From Acutalibacteraceae bacterium (GTDB lineage Bacteria; Bacillota; Clostridia; Oscillospirales; Acutalibacteraceae), in the NCBI GenBank assembly GCA_045543505.1, contig JAZQMR010000037.1, forward strand, positions 1 to 36,635: 36,635 bases of DNA, in the 5' to 3' direction. Position numbers and translations under genes: made by a program. Positions 4,258 through 36,555 of this stretch are shown in pieces. Every line of letters begins with the position of its first letter. The first letter of the stretch is position 1. The notes below the pieces were generated by a model that saw nothing but the letters and a program-made list of their open reading frames with translations, ran no database searches and had not been told where the DNA came from.

Positions 4258-4286
4258 TTGACTTTTTAGTTGGGTTGTGTTATTAT
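4258..4286 (+). promoter_or_regulatory. Sigma-A-like promoter for the small Cys-rich ORF
   Basis: TTGACT (4258-4263), 17-bp spacer, TATTAT (4281-4286); about 45 nt upstream of the RBS AAAGGAGAG. Confidence 0.5.
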
Positions 4287-4332
4287 AATAAAGATCGATC
4301 GTATTTTTGTTATAAGTAAAGGAGAGTTTTTT

Positions 4333-4704
4333 ATGTCAGTAAAAAATATAGTGAGAAATTTGTTCTTAAGTGGTGCATTGGTGTTGTCAGGTGGTGCCGT
4401 TTGTGGTAGGCCGGTTTCGGCTTCTGATAAAAAATTTCCTGCAGAATGCTTAAAATGCAAAGACTGTCTAGAATCATTTATGGAGGATTTTCTTCCGTTG
4501 GGTGATCTAGCCCGAGATAGCATCAAGTGTGTAGTGGATTATGCGAAATGTTTGGAAGATGTAATATTTTCAGGGTTAGATACAAATGAATGTAAAATTC
4601 AAAGAGAGAATTGTTTTGATAAAGTCGAGCAAGAAATCAACTCACTGAAACAAGACATCGCGTCAAAGTACCAAGACTTCGTGTCAATGCAAGAAGAGCT
4701 GTAA
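4333..4704 (+). CDS. Small secreted cysteine-rich protein of unknown function (123 aa)
   Basis: ATG 4333 follows AAAGGAGAG (4318-4326). N-terminal signal peptide (NLFLSGALVLSGGAVCGRPVSA|SD), then 7 Cys in the mature part and a C-terminal helical, coiled-coil-like tail. I recognise no family. Confidence 0.6.
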   Translation: MSVKNIVRNLFLSGALVLSGGAVCGRPVSASDKKFPAECLKCKDCLESFMEDFLPLGDLARDSIKCVVDYAKCLEDVIFSGLDTNECKIQRENCFDKVEQEINSLKQDIASKYQDFVSMQEEL

Positions 4705-5014: not shown

Positions 5015-5935
5015 ATGCGAAAGATAAATGAACTTGCAAGTTTGACCGGAATGACCACGCGTGCGCTGCGCTACTACGACAAAATCGGCCTATTGAAGCC
5101 AGCGGAAATTTCAGAATCAGGGTACAGGCTCTATGACGATAAAGCCTTGGAAACTCTGCAGCAAATTTTATTCTTTCGAGAGCTTGATGTGCCGCTAAAG
5201 CAGATAAATGCCATCTTGGGAAGCCCGAATTTTGATAGACTATCGATGCTGAAGAAACATAAAAAGCTGATAACGCTCAAGCGCGACCGGCTGAACAATA
5301 TTTTGGCGTTGATTGAGAAAAACTTAAAGGGAGAGCACTATATGAGCTTCACAGAATTCGAAATGAAATCGATCGAAACCGCCTTTAGAGAAAGTATTGA
5401 AACCGTCACGGATGCTAAGTTTTGGGATTTTATAAAAGAAAAATTTAGTAGCAAAGAGGATATGATTGAAAAGTCGTTGAAGGCAATTCAAACTCAGCCA
5501 GAGATGATTTACAGCTATTTCGGCAGTGTTGACGGCTACGTAAAAGCCCTGAAAAAAGAGGCCGACAAGGAAAAACTCGCCGAAATTAAGAAAAACTGCG
5601 ACGAGATATACTTAAAGATAAGCCAAAATCAAGATAAATCCGTCTCGGATGAAACCGTTCAAAAGCTGGTAGATGACTTGCAAAAACTACATGAAAGCTT
5701 CTATGAGACGACTACAACTGGGATGATAAAGGATTTGAGTACCACGCTGCTGTGTGACGTTGATGCGATGAAAACCGAAATTAGCAGCACTTTAGTCGAA
5801 AAGGACATCGACGAGGCGGTAAGAAAAGCCGAGGCCAACTGTGCAAAGTTGATTGACCACTTTGATGGCAAGTTCGGTAAGGGCTCAGCCAGTTTTATCG
5901 GCGAAGCTATAAAGTATTATTTAACTCAAAGATAA
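5015..5935 (+). CDS. MerR-family transcriptional regulator, TipAL/Mta-like (306 aa)
   Basis: ATG 5015 follows AAGGAGG (5000-5006). N-terminal MerR HTH (INELASLTGMTTRALRYYDKIGLLKP...GYRLYDD) and a coiled-coil linker. The long C-terminal domain ends in a TipAS-like ...GKGSASFIGEAIKYY. Confidence 0.8.
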   Translation: MRKINELASLTGMTTRALRYYDKIGLLKPAEISESGYRLYDDKALETLQQILFFRELDVPLKQINAILGSPNFDRLSMLKKHKKLITLKRDRLNNILALIEKNLKGEHYMSFTEFEMKSIETAFRESIETVTDAKFWDFIKEKFSSKEDMIEKSLKAIQTQPEMIYSYFGSVDGYVKALKKEADKEKLAEIKKNCDEIYLKISQNQDKSVSDETVQKLVDDLQKLHESFYETTTTGMIKDLSTTLLCDVDAMKTEISSTLVEKDIDEAVRKAEANCAKLIDHFDGKFGKGSASFIGEAIKYYLTQR

Positions 5936-5937
5936 GT

Positions 5938-5967
5938 AAGGCGTGCGGATGCACGTCTTTTATTTGT
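5938..5967 (+). terminator. Probable intrinsic terminator after the MerR gene
   Basis: AAGGCGTGC (5938-5946) pairs with GCACGTCTT (5951-5959) with one G.T pair, loop GGAT, then a T-rich tail TTTTATTTG. Confidence 0.5.
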
Positions 5968-6040
5968 TCATAAAGCTTTCTTGCAAGACTCCACATAAAC
6001 GGCAAAATTGCAGAGACAATAAAGGCAAAGGAGTGATTTC

Positions 6041-6397
6041 GTGGAATATGTGAAAGCGTTTGTCGTGGGAGGGCTGATTTGCGTGGCGGCGCAGGTGCTA
6101 ATCGATAAAACAAAGCTAACTCCCGCGAGGATCTTGGTATTGTTTGTTACACTTGGTGTAGCGCTGACAGGACTTGGCCTTTATGAGCCGTTAGTTGAGT
6201 TTGCGGGCGCCGGCGCAACGGTGCCTCTGACGGGGTTTGGCTACACCATGGCGAAAGGAACCCTCGAGGCGGTTAAAGAAAAGGGCCTCATCGGCGCCTT
6301 GACTGGAGGCCTAACTGCGGGATCAGCTGGAATCGCGGCGGCAGTGTTTTTTGGATATATCGCAGCGTTAGTCTCGAAGCCAAGCGACAAAAATTGA
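6041..6397 (+). CDS. spoVAE: Stage V sporulation protein AE (SpoVAEB type), 118 aa
   Basis: GTG 6041 lies 7 nt after AAGGAG (6028-6033). Strong resemblance to SpoVAEB: FVVGGLICV..Q.L.D..KLTPA...EFAGAGATVPLTGFG...LTAGSAGIAAAV. Confidence 0.85.
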   Translation: MEYVKAFVVGGLICVAAQVLIDKTKLTPARILVLFVTLGVALTGLGLYEPLVEFAGAGATVPLTGFGYTMAKGTLEAVKEKGLIGALTGGLTAGSAGIAAAVFFGYIAALVSKPSDKN

Positions 6398-6553
6398 TAA
6401 TTTCCAAAATTAACCTTGCCAAAAACCTGCATAAAAGGCAATTTAGCACAAATAATAACAATGAAGGCGTTGCTAAGATCACGTATATGGCGTAATTCTT
6501 ACGAATGGTAAAGATTAAATAAAGCAGTATTTTTTAAGCTTTTTACTATTTGC

Positions 6554-6732
6554 GGGAGTAACCTAAGCGAGCATCTGGCGATCGCGAGGCGCCGAAGGCC
6601 AGTAGGGCCTTCGGCCAGCCCAGCGCTCAACAACGTTGAGTGCTGGGCCACAAAGAAAATATTATTTTCTTTGGCCTCGCGGCCTGGTTGCGGCAGCTAC
6701 CCAAATGAAAAAAGCTTACTTCGGTCATCCCC
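6554..6732 (+). mobile_element. MITE copy 1 (179 bp, IS1-type terminal inverted repeats, three-hairpin core)
   Basis: 5' end GGGAGTAACCTAAGCGAGCAT. Core CGCGAGGC / hairpin CCGAAGGCC..GGCCTTCGG / hairpin CCCAGCGCTCAAC..GTTGAGTGCTGGG / hairpin CAAAGAAAAT..ATTTTCTTTG / GCCTCGCG. Degenerate 3' repeat ...GCTTACTTCGGTCATCCCC. Flanks CTATTTGC and TTATTTGT match at 6 of 8. Aligns end to end with the copies at 14930 and 32936. Confidence 0.75.
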
Positions 6733-6829
6733 TTATTTGTCTTTGATTGTCGTTGAGGTCCATATATGAACTATTAGCGCTGCCGCAGCGAAAATTTAAT
6801 TATGAAGAGAGTAAAATGGAGGTTTTATG

Positions 6830-7369
6830 ATGAAAGCAACCGGAATTGTAAGGCGCATCGACGACTTGGGGCGAGTGGTCATCCCGAAGGAAATCCGCCG
6901 TACGTTGCGTATTCGAGAGGGCGACCCGCTGGAGATATACACCGATACCGAGGGCGGCGTCATCTTCAAGAAGTACTCGCCTGTGGGAGAGCTCTCGCAA
7001 TTCGCCACGACCTACTCGGATGTACTTTCGCATACATCGAACTTGCCCACCGTGATTTGCGATAGAGACCATGTTGTGGCGGTGGCAGGCCTGTCGAAGA
7101 AGGAATACCTCGAGCGCCGAATTACACCATCACTCGAGGACGTAATGGACTCGCGCCAAGGATACATCTACAGCGCCAAGGACAACAACACGCTACTCCC
7201 GATTGAGGGCATCGACAAAAAGGCTGCCGTGGCGTTCCCGATAATTGTGGCGGGCGACGTGACCGGTGCCGTGATAATGCTTCAAGATGGAGACAACACC
7301 GCGCCCAGCGACACAGAAATAAAACTCACGCAAACCGCCGCCGCATTTCTCGGCAAGCAAATGGAGTAG
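6830..7369 (+). CDS. spoVT: Stage V sporulation protein T (AbrB-type N-terminal domain plus GAF-like domain)
   Basis: MKATGIVRRIDDLGRVVIPKEIRRTLRIREGDPLEI... is nearly identical to the N-terminus of Bacillus SpoVT. The C-terminus is ...AAAFLGKQME. GGAGG at 6816-6820; ATG 6827 is an equally possible start. Confidence 0.92.
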   Translation: MKATGIVRRIDDLGRVVIPKEIRRTLRIREGDPLEIYTDTEGGVIFKKYSPVGELSQFATTYSDVLSHTSNLPTVICDRDHVVAVAGLSKKEYLERRITPSLEDVMDSRQGYIYSAKDNNTLLPIEGIDKKAAVAFPIIVAGDVTGAVIMLQDGDNTAPSDTEIKLTQTAAAFLGKQME

Positions 7370-7376
7370 GAAAAGT

Positions 7377-7410
7377 CCCCTCACCAATCCAGGTGAGGGG
7401 AATATTATTT
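7377..7410. terminator. Bidirectional terminator between the convergent spoVT and repeat-protein genes
   Basis: Stem CCCCTCACC (7377-7385) / GGTGAGGGG (7392-7400), with AAAAG on the left and AATATTATTTTT on the right. Confidence 0.7.
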
Positions 7411-8805
7411 TTAGCCACCTTGAATGAAAAAGCGCTGCACAAAATCAATAAGGTCTTGCCCGGACAAGCCAAAGCGATTCATTGCCCACTCAAGCATATT
7501 TTTAAGGCGAGGGTTGTTAAAGTTCAAGTTGCGCTGTTGGACACTTGCTTCTTGCGGTTCAGTTGTGTTGGAATTGAAGATTTGCTCCAAACCACTTGCT
7601 GCTCGCTCTGATGCTCGGTTAAAGTTGTCCTCTTCAATTGCAAAATCAATAGTGTCAACACGTGTTTCACGCATAAGAAACTCGTCGCCGTTGCGTGCAC
7701 ACACGGGTACTCTTGGCGCTACAGTGAGGCTATTTGCTGCTTGGACTGTCACATCACGCGTAGGTCTATCCTCAGTAAAACCTGAAAACTCTATATCACC
7801 GCCATCAATAATGCCCGCGCCAGTACCATCGTGTGTAAAAAGATTGGAAGAGGTCGAGTAAACTGTAGAACGCTCGCCTGCGTTAATTCTATTCGCACCC
7901 TCAGCCGTTATGGCCCCATCGCCATACACCCGCGTGTTACCATTGCCATCCACCTGCGTGCGACCGTTACCGACCACCTGCGTGTCACCGTCGCCGCGCA
8001 CCAGCGTACCACCATTGCCATCCACCCGCGTGTTACCATTGCCATCCACCTGCGTGCGACCGTTACCGACCACCCGCGTGTCACCAGCGCCTACCACATA
8101 CGTGAAACCGGCCCCGTTCACTCGCGTGTCACCATTGCCATCCACCCGCGTGCGACCGTTGCCATTCACCTGCGTGAAACCGTCGCCGCGCACCAGCGTA
8201 CCACCAGTGCCATCCACATGTGTGTTACCGTTGCCATTCACCCGCGTGCAACCGTTGCCATCCACCTGCGTGAAACCGTCGCCGAACACCCGCGTGACAC
8301 CATTGCCATCCACCCGTGTGTTACCGTTGCCATTCACCCGCGTGCGACCGTTGCCATCCACCTGCGTGAAACCGTCGCCGCACACCAGCGTACTACCAGT
8401 GCCATCCACCTGCGTGAAACCGTCGCCGCACACCAGCGTACTACCAGTGCCATCCACCTGTGTGTCACCGTTTCCTTTCACCCGCGTGTGACCGTTGCCA
8501 TTCACCTGCGTGGCACCGTTGCCGCGCACCAGCGTATCACCAGCACCATCCACTTGCGTGAAACCGTTGCCAGTCACCGTAGTTTCACCATCACCATACA
8601 CTTGCGTGAAACCGTCGCCAATAACATATGTGTCGTCGTTGTCGATGATCATGCGATCAGGTTGCGCACTAACAGTATTCGTGTAACTGCCATAAATTTG
8701 ACTCGATAATCCTACTGCCGCCACCAGCCCCAGTGCAACCAGCTTTTTAGCTGCGCTGTTGCAGACTGACCATATGTCCTCGTGAATGAACTTGTTTTTT
8801 TGCAT
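7411..8805 (-). CDS. Secreted octapeptide-repeat protein (predicted beta-solenoid), 464 aa, unknown function
   Basis: ATG at 8805 is preceded by GGGGGA. Signal peptide KKLVALGLVAAVGLSS...VSA|QP. Then 30 uninterrupted 8-residue repeats G-x-G-x-T-x-V-x, followed by a non-repetitive C-terminal domain of about 160 aa. The ORF-track start at 8862 adds 19 aa with no RBS. Confidence 0.75.
   Translation of the reverse strand: MQKNKFIHEDIWSVCNSAAKKLVALGLVAAVGLSSQIYGSYTNTVSAQPDRMIIDNDDTYVIGDGFTQVYGDGETTVTGNGFTQVDGAGDTLVRGNGATQVNGNGHTRVKGNGDTQVDGTGSTLVCGDGFTQVDGTGSTLVCGDGFTQVDGNGRTRVNGNGNTRVDGNGVTRVFGDGFTQVDGNGCTRVNGNGNTHVDGTGGTLVRGDGFTQVNGNGRTRVDGNGDTRVNGAGFTYVVGAGDTRVVGNGRTQVDGNGNTRVDGNGGTLVRGDGDTQVVGNGRTQVDGNGNTRVYGDGAITAEGANRINAGERSTVYSTSSNLFTHDGTGAGIIDGGDIEFSGFTEDRPTRDVTVQAANSLTVAPRVPVCARNGDEFLMRETRVDTIDFAIEEDNFNRASERAASGLEQIFNSNTTEPQEASVQQRNLNFNNPRLKNMLEWAMNRFGLSGQDLIDFVQRFFIQGG
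7900..8619 (-). repeat. Coding tandem repeat: 30 in-phase 24-bp units with 48-bp and 96-bp higher-order copies
   Basis: 24-nt periodicity over 720 nt with no indels. Exact 48-bp x2 tandem at 8354-8401 / 8402-8449. 7927-7989 matches 8023-8085 at 62 of 63 positions (96-nt offset). Confidence 0.9.
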
Positions 8806-8930
8806 GTATGCATTCCCCCTTTTTTGTTTAGTTTCAATATCGATGATATCACAAATCAACATCTAAGTCAAGCGTATTTTAAATCTTATGGCAAATATAT
8901 TTACAAAAGAAGATACCTAAGCTCAAGCAA

Positions 8931-9689
8931 GGAGAGTGTTTTCTAAAATAATCAAATGTGATATAGTAGGAAGAAAAGGGCGGTATAGATATGTACAAGT
9001 GCAAAAAGTGCGAATCAAACGAATACGTAAAAGCTGGCTTTGTAAAGGGTGAGCAGCGATACAAATGCAAGAAATGTGGCTGCCGATTTGTGCCAACAAG
9101 ACATAAAGGTAGAAGCAAACAAGAAAAGATTTTGGCAGTGTGGATGTACGCGCACGGTTTTTCATTTAGAACCATCGCCAAGTTTTTTAAGGTCAACGTT
9201 CATTCGTCGTTCGTTTGTTTGAGTGAAAGCTTTTGTAAAAAACAACTATTCTAAACCGGCTCCAATTGACGATAGCGTAGTGATTGAGCTCGACGAAATG
9301 TGGCATTTTTTATATTCAAAAAAAGGCAAGTTTGGATTTGGAAAGCTTATTTCCAAACCACAAAACAGCTCATCGATTGGGAGTGCGGAGCTCGAGATTC
9401 TGAAACGTTTAGAAAAATGTACGAGCGATAAAAAAGTGGAACTTAAAAGTATTCTTTAGCGATCGATACAGTGTTTATCGTAATTTTATACCACCGGAAC
9501 ATCCGATTCAAACAAAATTCGAAACACATTTAATTGAAAGCGACAATTTTTCTCAACGACGCTGGTTTGCAAGATTTAGACGAAAAACCTGCTGTGTTTC
9601 CCGCTCCCTCGACATGATTAATTTGACCATATTTATGAGGCCGTTCATGTCAATAAGTCTATCAGCACAGTTATTTGAGCAACGCTTCC
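8931..9689 (+). mobile_element. IS1-family element (second lineage), full length but frameshifted and defective
   Basis: Left end GGAGAGTGTTTTCTAAAATAA; right end TTATTTGAGCAACGCTTCC (9671-9689) is its imperfect inverse. Zinc-finger InsA-like ORF (MYKCKKCES...YKCKKCGCRF), then DDE pieces VIELDEMWHF... and ...RRKTCCVSRSL in different frames. Confidence 0.7.
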
Positions 9690-9916
9690 TTCAACGGTGT
9701 AAGTCTGGCTTTTGTTTTTTAGCGAAGTATGAGTGCCTTCATAGCATGCTTCTGAGTACGCCGAATATGCGCCAGAGTAGAATTGACGAGCCTTCACGGA
9801 CCGCTCAACTAAATGCTGAATCCGCTCTCGACTTTTATCGAAGGCTATGTCGAAGCCTACGATTTTCTGTGTATCTCTGCTTACCAACGTTTTTGCTCAA
9901 TGTCGGCGCGATATAG
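9690..9916 (-). mobile_element. Internal fragment of the IS1-family element seen intact at 35790-36555
   Basis: Minus-strand translation VSRDTQKIVGFDIAFDKSRERIQHLVERSVKARQFYSGAYSAYSEACYEGTHTSLKNKSQTYTVEG parallels residues encoded at 36150-36350. The DNA is visibly similar, with scattered substitutions. It abuts the right end of the preceding IS. Confidence 0.7.
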
Positions 9917-14929: not shown

Positions 14930-15107
14930 CGGGAATGCCCCAAGTGAGCATTTTCCATTGGCTTAGCTGCCAACCTGAGCCGCGAGGCCAAAGAAAATAT
15001 TATTTTCTTTGTGGCCCAGCGCTCAATGTGTTGAGCGCTGGGCTGGCCGAAGACCCACAGGGCCTTCGGCTCCTCGCGGCCGCTAGATGCGCGATTAGGG
15101 CACTACC
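14930..15107 (-). mobile_element. MITE copy 2 (inverted relative to copy 1), with a perfect 8-bp target-site duplication
   Basis: Ends GGGAATGCCCCAAGTGAGCAT (14931-) and ...ATGCGCGATTAGGGCACTACC (-15107). The core has the same three hairpins as the other copies. GACTATTT occurs at 14922-14929 and again at 15108-15115. Confidence 0.85.
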
Positions 15108-19141: not shown

Positions 19142-19310
19142 AGATCAAGCCAGCTGGCGCCGCGAGGCGCAGAAGGCCCTACGGGCCTTCTGCCAACCCA
19201 GAGCGCAACTACGTTGGGCTCTGGGCTACAAAGAAAATAAAAATTTATTTTCTTTGTAGCCTCGCGGCCGCAGCTGGCTCAGCCAAAAGAAAGTTCTCCA
19301 TTAGGAGATT
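19132..19310 (+). mobile_element. MITE copy 3 (divergent subfamily; termini eroded, boundaries approximate)
   Basis: Same architecture as the other copies. Long outer stem GCCAGCTGGCGCCGCGAGGC / GCCTCGCGGCCGCAGCTGGC. Hairpins GCAGAAGGCCC..GGGCCTTCTGC, CCCAGAGCGCAAC..GTTGGGCTCTGGG and GCTACAAAGAAAATAAA..TTTATTTTCTTTGTAGC. Paired substitutions relative to copies 1, 2 and 4. Confidence 0.6.
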
Positions 19311-32935: not shown

Positions 32936-33114
32936 GGGAGTCCCCTAAGCGAGCATCTGGCAGCCGCGAGGCGCCGAATGCCCGCAGGGCCTTCGGCCAG
33001 CCCAGCGCTCAACTTTGTTGAGCGCTGGGCCACAAAGAAAATAATATTTTCTTTGGCCTCGCGGCCCGGCTGCAGCAGCTAATTCAAGTGGGAATGCTCA
33101 CTTAGGGCACTTCT
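32936..33114 (+). mobile_element. MITE copy 4, perfect 8-bp target duplication, inserted into the 3' end of the aminotransferase gene
   Basis: Ends GGGAGTCCCCTAAGCGAGCAT and ATGCTCACTTAGGGCACTTCT. The core is nearly identical to copy 1. AATTTTGC occurs at 32928-32935 and again at 33115-33122. Confidence 0.85.
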
Positions 33115-35789: not shown

Positions 35790-36555
35790 TAGGGAGTGCC
35801 CTATAGAAGCATTTGTGATATACTAGATTTATGAAATGTAAAGCATGTAATGACGAAACAAAACAAATAAAAACTGGAAAAACAAAGGCGGGAACCAAAA
35901 AGTACAAATGCAAAAAATGCGGAAAATATTACACCCAGGAAAGCAAAAAGAGAGGCCATAGCGAAGAAACAAAGAATCAGGCGATAAAATTATATTTGGA
36001 GGGAAATAGTAGCCGAGCAGTCGGCCGAATTCTGGGAATATGGAAAAATATTGAGCCCAAAGAGACTCTAAATGCGCGGGTTAACGTCATCTAAATGGAC
36101 GAGCTCTATAGTTTCGTCGAGAGAAAAAAAAGATTTTACGCGATAACGCTGGTCAGTAGAGATACACGGGAAATCGTAGGTTTTGACATAGCTTTCGACA
36201 AAAGTCGAGAGCGAATTCAGCGCTTAGTTGATCGTTACGTGAAGGCGTGTCAGTACTACTCTGACGCTTATTCGGCGTATTCAGAAGTGTGCTATGAAGG
36301 CGCTCATACTTCGCTAAAAAATAAAAGTCAAACTTACACCGTTGAAGGTGTAAACTTTGACTTGCGACACTACATTCCTTCTTTACGCCGAAAATCCAAA
36401 TGCTTTTTTCGATCACTTGAAACAGCTAAAGCTGTCTTCAAAATTTTTGTTAAAGCCTTCAATCTATTTGCTCGTGCTAAAAAGAATTTTCCTCACCTGA
36501 AATCTGCTTTTTGTCTCTCGAGTTTTATTTAAATGCTCAACCAGGGCACTCCCTA
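35790..36555 (+). mobile_element. IS1-family insertion sequence with both inverted repeats present
   Basis: TAGGGAGTGCCCT at 35790-35802 and its inverse AGGGCACTCCCTA at 36543-36555. 766 bp, coding for a zinc-finger/HTH domain plus an IS1-type DDE domain. No flanking target duplication. Confidence 0.85.
35831..36532 (+). pseudogene. IS1-family transposase interrupted by one in-frame TAA (36092-36094)
   Basis: ORFs 35831-36094 and 36095-36532 are in the same frame (both coordinates are 2 mod 3). ...NARVNVI*MDELYSF aligns with ...SVVIELDEMWHF of the IS at 8931, so the stop sits where a Glu codon (GAA) is expected. Confidence 0.75.

Follow-up and report, generated by a model that had tools for sequence, protein, structure and literature searches.

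A probably Sec-exported protein of an Acutalibacteraceae bacterium carries a long and regular octapeptide array resembling the β-helical needle of phage T4 gp5

The stretch of DNA analysed here, referred to as the window, comprises positions 1 to 36,635 (forward strand) of contig JAZQMR010000037.1 from an Acutalibacteraceae bacterium (GenBank assembly GCA_045543505.1), and the gene in question lies on its minus strand and encodes a protein built around 30 in-phase octapeptide repeats (the octad gene and the octad protein; Table 1). The genes before the octad gene are tilS, hpt, ftsH, a gene for a MerR/TipAS regulator, a spoVAE-like open reading frame (ORF) and spoVT, and an earlier reading made from the DNA letters alone (the sequence-only reading) had correctly placed the octad gene convergent with spoVT and close to spoVAE. 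Beyond the octad gene lie IS1 remnants and then a long surface-polysaccharide or teichoic-type cluster, which encodes family 2 glycosyltransferases (GT2), LicD, an IspD/TarI-like protein, an alcohol dehydrogenase, Wzy, DegT and LuxC/LuxE-like proteins. No tail, baseplate, type VI secretion system (T6SS), PAAR or peptidase-ABC (ATP-binding cassette) exporter gene is present in the 36.6-kb window, and a search of the window against the Rfam families gave no match. The octad gene forms a transcription unit of its own, closed by its own terminator.

The longest ORF for the octad gene spans 7411-8862 on the minus strand and would encode 483 amino acid residues (aa). Because the upstream ATG of this reading is overlapped by a sigma-70-like promoter (8871-8843), and because a ribosome-binding site precedes the ATG at 8805, the 464-aa product starting at 8805, which the sequence-only reading had chosen, is likely the true one. 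A switchable promoter was considered and rejected, as no flanking inverted repeats were found. By inspection, the N-terminal region of the octad protein has a basic n-region, the hydrophobic core LVALGLVAAVGL and a VSA/Q cleavage-type motif, and the AlphaFold model has a helix at residues 15-34 in this region. The n-region and a [VA]-x-A-Q motif are conserved across the paralogues P0005, P0006, P0008, P0014, P0017 and P0024. These features suggest that the octad protein is probably exported by the Sec pathway. A Sec signal peptide followed by repeats had also been read from the letters; a signal-like N-terminus followed by a repeat-built, β-rich shaft is borne out, with the signal itself judged by eye. 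A lipoprotein was rejected, since the signal region of the octad protein contains no Cys and only paralogue P0005 has a lipobox-like VAGC motif. Pfam and NCBIfam scans of the protein found no recognised wall anchor, in agreement with the earlier statement that LPXTG, S-layer homology (SLH) and choline-binding anchors are missing. Exact-sequence look-ups returned no record of the octad protein, SpoVT, P0005, P0016 or P0022.

Table 1. Features of the octad gene, its product and related elements. Positions refer to the window unless another contig (L001, L005) is named.
Feature	Position	Strand	Remarks
Coding sequence	7411..8805	-	464 aa plus stop codon; from ORF list, translation and homologues found
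Sigma-70-like promoter	8843..8871	-	TTGACT, 17-nucleotide (nt) spacer, TATCAT, TG upstream of the -10 hexamer; consensus scan only
Ribosome-binding site AGGGGGA	8814..8820	-	8 nt before the ATG at 8805; read from sequence
Probable Sec signal peptide, aa 1-47	8665..8805	-	n-region MQKNKFIHEDI..CNSAAKK, hydrophobic core LVALGLVAAVGL, VSA/Q motif
Short N-terminal linker, aa 48-62	8620..8664	-	QPDRMIIDNDDTYVI; from translation
30 in-phase octads G-[ND]-G-x-T-x-V-x, aa 63-302	7900..8619	-	gp5 C-terminal repeat type
About 5-6 degenerate octads, aa 303-350	7756..7899	-	8-residue register continues; first half of the family C-terminal core
Conserved β-rich core, aa 351-386	7648..7755	-	RDVTVxxANSLTVAPG...NG.EF.MG.T..ET; invariant alignment columns
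Helical C-terminal tail, aa 387-464	7414..7647	-	ends FGLSGQDLIDFVQRFFIQGG; AlphaFold helices 392-410, 432-445, 449-461
Two-way hairpin terminator	7376..7401	both	common to the octad gene and convergent spoVT
spoVT	6827-7369		Pfam SpoVT_C; convergent with the octad gene
spoVAE-like ORF	6041-6397		named from sequence appearance, without Pfam scan
Nif11-leader paralogues P0001, P0004, P0009, P0015, P0022	L001 4246-6204, 6397-8592; L005 8917-11289
Copies of the ~125-nt element	6570-6700, 14965-15095, 19145-19280, 32950-33080; L001 1165-1295, 11325-11420	+, -, +, + (window copies)

The array of 240 aa consists of 29 perfect GxGxTxVx octads and one degenerate octad, the 30th (GDGAITAE), with no insertion or deletion between them; the strict phase described in the sequence-only reading stands, and its perfection holds for 29 of the 30 units. 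With the octad positions named a to h, Gly occupies a and c in all 30 octads, and Thr at e and Val at g are each kept in 29. Position b is Asn in 16 octads and Asp in 8 (24/30 together), position h is Asp in 11 and Asn in 5 (16/30 together) with Arg, Lys and Glu besides, and Arg, Asp, Gln and Phe are found at the variable positions. For a protein of this composition, 29 consecutive GxGxTxV octads would arise by chance with a probability of about 1e-101. At the DNA level, Tandem Repeats Finder detects 24-, 48- and 96-nt periods, for which the matches amount to 68-81% and the indels to 0%, and the G+C content is 62% in the array compared with 43% for the window. At their variable positions, octads separated by lags of 2, 4 and 8 have similarities of 0.27, 0.39 and 0.43, respectively, compared with 0.14-0.19 at odd lags, so that the 16/32-residue superperiod noticed earlier is real. 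Two antisense ORFs over this region, 7831-8709 (+; 292 aa) and 7910-8491 (+; 193 aa), are by-products of the array and not genes.

The array matches the Pfam family Gp5_trimer_C (PF22178) over four stretches with 41.3 bits against a gathering score of 30.9 (E = 1.9e-10). A phmmer search of the Protein Data Bank (PDB) returned chains of the phage T4 protein gp5 (1k28 and 1wth, E = 2.6e-7), with gp5 residues 442-551 aligned octad for octad, and PHROG 430, 'baseplate hub subunit and tail lysozyme', was matched with E = 2e-18. A tblastn search of 50,697 phage genomes matched 123 records, all 123 of them phages of Gram-negative hosts; the 25 listed matches all fall on the gene for gp5, the central spike or the baseplate hub-lysozyme, one such gene being annotated as hypothetical and one record carrying no annotation. 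The sequence-only reading had called the array unclassified and had named ice-nucleation proteins as the only solenoids with an octapeptide period; the repeat hits an existing family, and the gp5 helix also has an eight-residue repeat. The related Pfam Gp5_C repeat (PF06715) gave no hit in the octad protein, and the shorter arrays of the paralogues score 17-21 bits against PF22178, below its cut-off. The nearest proteins outside the family among 5.8 billion clusters, P0028 and P0036 (about 281 aa), are not significant matches and look spike-like by eye.

Since matches between repeats inflate E-values, a column-permutation control was used, in which the 5040 circularly distinct column orders were put on all octads so that composition and period were unchanged. 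Against gp5, the true octad order ranks 45/5040 (z = 2.8), and the likeness to gp5 is hence specific at the level of the motif, which by itself does not prove common descent. In the gp5 octad, VxGxxxxx, position a is Gly, b is Asn or Asp, g is Val and h is polar or charged, and positions c, e and g face inward (PMC3004832). Three of these hallmarks, Gly at a, Asn/Asp at b and Val at g, are present in the octad array, and gp5 itself includes the octads GDATTLVE and GNGTILVK. As in T4 gp5 (PF22178; 1K28, 4JJ2, 4KU0), an eight-residue repeat has small or aliphatic residues at c, e and g and polar or charged ones at h. The octad protein differs from gp5 in having 30 near-perfect octads, compared with about 18 intertwined strands and 11 VxG repeats in gp5, in its Sec-type signal and chromosomal gene in a Gram-positive-type Clostridia lineage, and in a C-terminal end made of a conserved β core and a helical tail. 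VgrG of the T6SS, Mu gp45 and P2 gpV also end in a gp5-like triple-stranded β-helix; unlike these spikes, which exit on a contractile machine and not via Sec, the octad protein has no gp27-like or gp44-like hub domain. The array in the window is the longest and most regular gp5-type array among these searches.

These likenesses lead to the tentative hypothesis that the octad protein is Sec-exported and carries a gp5-like triple-stranded β-helical shaft of about 14-17 nm, whose trimeric state and length we infer. In such a structure, the 240-residue array would form a shaft of the gp5/VgrG type, most likely with three chains around one axis. Gly at a would make the corner kink, Gly at c, Thr at e and Val at g would face inward, Asn/Asp at b would form a ladder of hydrogen-bonded residues along the surface, and the variable positions d, f and h would be exposed. 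At about 4.8 Å per strand, 30 regular and about 5 degenerate octads would yield a rigid rod of the length given above, and the C-terminal core would continue the helix in degenerate form, where it may set the register, nucleate assembly or form the functional end. In gp5, position b forms an N/D ladder, and the last repeat position alternates between E and K with salt bridges (PMC4576200). The regular part of gp5 has a cavity instead of a packed core (PMC4576200, Buth et al.), and hence an interior of Gly, Thr and Val would not be too small for a gp5-like helix.

The distribution of charge bears on how octads may stack, because a three-start helix stacks consecutive octads whereas a coil of 16 residues stacks alternate ones. 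The net charge is -14 over the even octads and +5 over the odd octads. Consecutive octads share 7 contacts of like charge, a count with P of about 0.04 relative to shuffled order, whereas alternate octads share 14. This pattern suits the stacking of consecutive octads, as in a three-start helix, in which neighbouring octads of opposite charge would lie on one another. At position h alone, the alternation of charge is partial, with 4 attractive and 3 repulsive contacts at lag 1.

Several observations weigh against a gp5-like shaft. The charge statistic is modest, and the alternation is seen only at the level of whole octads. The invariant Gly at c and Thr at e are not invariant in gp5, which has Thr at d. 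The scores of the array add up over repeat units that are not independent, and HMMER E-values on repeats are inflated for this reason. The order of residues in the octad is also similar to that in the first half-repeat of ice-nucleation proteins (rank 190/5040, z = 2.0), and similarity to gp5 at the motif level could have arisen by convergence. The protein contains neither an OB-fold, nor a lysozyme domain, nor a gp27-like hub domain, and the window contains no gp27, PAAR, sheath or tube genes and offers no baseplate, tail or T6SS neighbourhood, so that the octad protein does not belong to the gp5 and VgrG central spikes as whole proteins. An AlphaFold2 model of the C-terminal region, built from a 17-sequence alignment, is unusable, with a predicted local distance difference test score (pLDDT) of 59 and a predicted template-modelling score (pTM) of 0.24. 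Finally, AlphaFold2 run on one chain with a single sequence builds a self-contained two-sheet solenoid and not the gp5 corkscrew, although such a monomer run cannot build a trimer.

The last of these points provides the strongest rival, namely that the octad protein is a monomeric, single-chain two-sheet β-solenoid with 16 residues, or two octads, per coil and a rod length of about 7 nm, and that its likeness to gp5 reflects convergence on a G-N/D...V strand-arc motif. Each octad would provide a T-x-V-x strand and a G-[ND]-G-x arc, the Thr and Val residues of the two sheets would lie face to face, and one sheet would be acidic or polar (Gln/Asp) and the other basic or hydrophobic (Arg/Leu), giving an architecture of the ice-nucleation or β-roll type with a different chemistry. 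In the best AlphaFold2 model, every strand has hydrogen-bond partners within the chain, and strands of 5 and of 3-4 residues alternate with a 16-residue period; the pLDDT exceeds 90 over much of the array, being 84-95 for residues 61-230 and 50-85 in the last third. The even/odd alternation at the variable positions points in the same direction, as do the 48- and 96-nt DNA periods that outscore 24 nt, the invariant Gly at a and c, which suits tight arcs, and the resemblance of the octad order to AGYGSTQT. However, only two of the five models are reasonably confident (mean pLDDT of 64, 59, 45, 43 and 29), and so structure prediction, to which the sequence-only reading had pointed for the number of residues per turn, answers with 16 only under that reservation. 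A Foldseek search with the model gave nothing usable among solved or viral predicted structures (best E = 0.34 in the PDB and 0.016 in BFVD, with template-modelling (TM) scores of at most 0.33), the hits being weak and of a generic β-helix kind. Stacking of alternate octads would create 14 repulsive and 3 attractive contacts, every significant match in sequence is to the trimeric helix of gp5, and even/odd alternation is itself a known feature of gp5 (PMC4576200). The monomeric solenoid is the somewhat less probable of the two arrangements.

The paralogue P0022 provides further information on the inward-facing positions. Its residues 132-283 form 19 in-phase octads, and in 11 consecutive repeats at its centre the e and g residues switch jointly, (Thr/Val, Val) becoming (Ile, Ser). 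By typical residue volumes, the two pairs would occupy a similar total volume, and the joint switch would indicate that both positions are buried together; in the monomeric solenoid it would fit packing of e against g across the sheets. Since a core made of the other positions would have to hold Arg, Asp, Gln and Phe, and since e and g change as a pair in P0022, the Thr/Val ladder most likely represents a buried core and not an ice-binding face, whether the shaft is a trimer or a monomer. The idea that the T-x-V ladder forms an exposed regular face thus becomes the less likely one.

The region following the array is 162 aa long and ends in ...FFIQGG. Its first part, the degenerate octads at aa 303-350, is conserved throughout the family, also in the members whose centre is helical. 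A profile search with the C-terminal core found nothing significant in Pfam, NCBIfam or the PDB, and the only β-type PDB matches to the core profile are to the tip of gp5 (E = 0.18, not significant). Four candidate families for the core were rejected: Bflower_2 was matched by 2 of 17 members with E of about 0.002-0.02, and DUF2345 (E = 0.07), Phage_BR0599 and DUF7305 by one below-threshold match each. A Nif11-like domain in the tail (FGLSGQDL...FFIQGG) was dropped, as Pfam gave no hit there. The tail of the octad protein is one of three types in the family and is also found in P0001, P0005 and P0009.

The C-terminal profile recovers only 25 proteins among 1.84 billion representatives. The family members come from Acutalibacteraceae, and a search of GTDB genomes found them in a single metagenome-assembled genome (MAG), also from Acutalibacteraceae, while no relatives were found in JGI metagenome contigs or IMG/VR viral contigs. 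Word-indexed protein searches returned 6, 7 and 18 proteins, of which only family members are significant, and a cluster look-up gave no names. In the related MAG, spoVT is 94.8% identical to that of the window at the DNA level, and three family genes occupy the same convergent position next to it. Paralogues form tandem groups, with three or four genes in L001, three in L003 and five in L005 between spoIIE and rpsL. The region upstream of the ATG of the octad gene, including the promoter, shares 76-78% identity with the corresponding 5' regions in paralogues on the MAG contigs L001 and L003.

The family is modular in that a shared promoter, an N-terminal signal and the C-terminal core are constant and the central module differs. 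Some members start with a signal of the form MQKNKF[IV]HEDI..CNSA.KKLVA.GL, the others with a Nif11 leader that ends in GG and precedes a signal-like segment. The centre consists of octads (the octad protein, P0002, P0003, P0008 and P0022) or of helical repeats, and the number of octads among close relatives is 30, about 15 or about 5-8. The tails are of three kinds, most of them ending in GG or SGG. The octad protein and its relatives make up a small multigene family of probably secreted Acutalibacteraceae proteins that diversifies rapidly. Modular trimeric fibres such as tail fibres and needles, trimeric autotransporter adhesins and BclA-type filaments likewise place a repetitive shaft of variable length beside a conserved terminal domain. 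The comparison is offered as a functional analogy and not as a relationship in sequence or fold: as in those fibres, the shaft type of the family is exchangeable and the repeat number varies. No anchor domain was identified.

Both ends of the family proteins show further regularities. The Nif11 domain (PF07862) scores above the Pfam cut-off in P0001, P0009 and P0022, precomputed Pfam hits and the sequences show the same leader in P0004 and P0015, and PF07862 gave no hit at either end of the octad protein. In these paralogues, which are 440-790 aa long, the leader ends in ...EVSGG ahead of a hydrophobic signal-like segment and an ASA motif. A double-glycine leader of the bacteriocin type on a large protein is an unusual pairing, and no peptidase-ABC exporter gene was seen near the Nif11-leader paralogues. 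Most C-termini in the family have an end of the Gly-Gly type, namely FFIQGG, VLRGG, GSSSGGK, GGSGGSN or GGSGGCQ (window 7414-7440; P0004, P0008, P0010, P0012, P0014 and P0019), and in one tail type a hydrophobic segment resembling a membrane helix lies just before this end. It is conceivable that these C-terminal ends serve as a putative sorting or processing signal.

The codons of the array are chosen according to position. GGC is used at a in 24 of 30 octads, GGT at c in 29, ACG at e in 25 and GTG at g in 29, whereas these codons account genome-wide for 45% (GGC), 23% (GGT), 37% (ACG) and 34% (GTG) of usage. The resulting pattern is GGC NNN GGT NNN ACG NNG GTG NNN, with zero diversity at the third positions of c and g in the window array; most d codons are of the form NNC and most f codons of the form CNG. 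The diverged homologue P0002 keeps the choices GGC/GGT/ACG/GTG, and the array of the homologue at L003 2080-3012, which has about 70% DNA identity, has GGT in 12 of 15 and GTG in 14 of 15 octads. Among the repeats, nucleotide diversity is 0.52 at codon positions 1 and 2 of b, d, f and h, whereas fourfold synonymous sites in the invariant codons have a value of 0.15. Because amino-acid-changing variation at the putatively exposed positions far exceeds silent variation, the comparison points to selection for diversity among repeats. Such diversity could fix the register of a repetitive helix or reflect an outside partner that recognises the surface, and the codon alternation could result either from selection for diversity or from a constraint at the DNA or RNA level. 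A diversity-generating retroelement was considered and rejected: no reverse transcriptase or template repeat was seen, and the changes are not centred on adenines.

A role as a spore-coat or exosporium filament expressed in sporulation, which the sequence-only reading had entertained, appears very unlikely. The octad gene converges on spoVT and lies near the spoVAE-like ORF, another paralogue array adjoins spoIIE, and variable repeats beside a conserved C-terminal domain recall BclA-type filaments by analogy. Yet the promoter found by the consensus scan is of the housekeeping sigma-70/sigma-A type, the gene is transcribed separately from its neighbours and has its own terminator, and a Sec-type signal would not be expected here, since coat and exosporium proteins are made in the mother cell and need none. 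The other flank consists of surface-polysaccharide genes and IS1 remnants, the array beside spoIIE also borders rpsL-tuf, and the paralogue arrays lie at unrelated places, which makes the sporulation neighbours look coincidental.

Still less probable is an ice-nucleation, antifreeze or water-ordering protein with an exposed T-x-V face. Ice-nucleation proteins (PF00818; consensus AGYGSTQTAGEESSLT, PMC9418140) share the 8/16-residue periodicity, the octad agrees with the first half of their consensus at about 3.4 of 8 residues, x-G-x-G-x-T-Q-[T/V] matching the first half-repeat, and in AlphaFold both proteins are 16-residue two-sheet solenoids (PMC9418140). To that extent the consensus is closer than had been thought, but the difference claimed in the sequence-only reading holds in that the Pfam Ice_nucleation family gives no hit at E <= 10 and the SxL[T/I] second half-repeat is missing, the octads being all of one type and not alternating TxT and SxL halves. 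The octad protein also lacks the Tyr ladder. The threonines of TxT point outward in ice-nucleation proteins, whereas Thr and Val are most likely buried here; an outward arrangement would leave Arg, Asp, Gln and Phe in the core, and the switch from (Thr, Val) to (Ile, Ser) in P0022 is unlike a conserved ice-binding face. Ice-binding faces are regular, while the exposed residues of the octad protein would be charged and hypervariable, and the host belongs to an anaerobic, gut-type Clostridia lineage. The RTX β-roll has in common with the octads arcs rich in Gly and Asp/Asn, short strands, one buried aliphatic residue and secretion. However, its nonapeptide (GGxGxDxUx) has a period of 9, whereas that of the array is strictly 8, no type I secretion genes lie nearby, no order-specific similarity is seen (z = 0.19) and Pfam HemolysinCabind gives no hit, in agreement with the earlier exclusion of RTX.

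Although short-read assemblies are prone to collapse or expand repeat arrays and the exact protein is absent from a collection of 15 billion proteins, an assembly artefact or a spurious ORF is unlikely to the point of being negligible, because the longest exact DNA repeat within the array is only 61 nt and its 24-nt units average 71% identity, because the reading frame is uninterrupted for 1.4 kb and is accompanied by a promoter, a ribosome-binding site and a terminator, because an independent MAG has a syntenic homologue with at least 15 octads and independent assemblies hold homologues with the same modules, and because the invariant residues are kept while adjacent codons vary.

Because no tail, T6SS or exporter genes lie nearby and no recognised wall anchor was found, the octad protein is interpreted as a rigid rod that would be exported and that belongs to a variable family of surface or extracellular proteins, rather than as a spike driven by a machine. 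Its expected role is structural and lies outside the cell or on its surface, as a fibre, spacer, adhesin or recognition target of phage or host, and puncture of a membrane by a contractile machine is not expected. The class of repeat is already known from gp5; what is new is its setting, a tiny, modular and fast-evolving family of gut Clostridia with a Sec-type signal, and no paper on gp5-like helices in secreted Firmicute proteins was found in the literature. It is possible, albeit doubtful, that a triple-stranded needle of the gp5/VgrG type has been taken over by a cellular, Sec-exported family without a contractile system and has grown there to 30 near-perfect octads, exceeding the compared T4 gp5 helix in length and regularity, and that in this family it would serve as a rod of variable length whose exposed residues are under diversifying selection, and that the same family swaps shafts (β-octads or helical repeats) and leaders (Sec-type n-region or Nif11-GG) around one C-terminal core.

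If the trimeric, gp5-like shaft is correct, the octad protein would present the needle fold of phage spikes as a free-standing element of a secreted cellular protein, outside a tail or T6SS. It would also be a natural, highly regular and length-tunable version of a scaffold that protein engineers value because it is extremely stable (PMC4576200). If the monomeric solenoid is correct instead, its β-solenoid cross-section would be one for which no relative has been solved. Under both models, the gene points to a small, hypervariable and modular family of probably secreted proteins in the poorly studied gut Oscillospirales. Exposed repeat positions that change faster than synonymous sites would be a signature of molecules facing phages, hosts or competitors.

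The surroundings of the family genes contain several mobile or repeated elements. IS1-family transposase remnants (Pfam DDE_Tnp_IS1) lie at 8991-9900, directly upstream of the octad gene, and at 36095-36532, and in the related MAG IS1 remnants flank the family loci at L003 7232-7615 and 195-493 and at L001 119-369. The copies share 80-84% of their DNA sequence, and the loci of the family resemble hot spots of insertion or rearrangement. In L003, a phage major capsid gene (5792-7239; Phage_capsid, E = 2e-50) lies past spoVT beside an IS1 transposase gene, a place taken in the window by the MerR-family gene and the spoVAE-like ORF. An intergenic element of about 125 nt is dispersed over the window and L001 (Table 1), with a mean identity of 84% between copies. 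Its predicted fold has a closing stem, GCCGCGAGG / CCTCGCGGC, around three hairpins, with a consensus energy of -71 kcal/mol, and three base pairs persist although both partner bases have changed. The element matches no Rfam family and could be a repeat resembling repetitive extragenic palindromes or miniature inverted-repeat transposable elements (REP/MITE), a structured RNA or a terminator.

Elsewhere in the window, the small ORF 4270-4704 (+) encodes a 144-aa protein that belongs to no Pfam family; its N-terminus is signal-like, and its mature part is rich in Cys (…CLKCKDCLESF…). Inside the polysaccharide cluster, the segment 23872-27563 (-) carries genes for a LuxC-like acyl-CoA reductase, a LuxE-like acyl-protein synthetase and an AMP-binding enzyme. 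The LuxC/LuxE-like genes adjoin genes of the lactate/malate dehydrogenase family and for a short-chain dehydrogenase, and this group may be a module for glycan acylation or modification.

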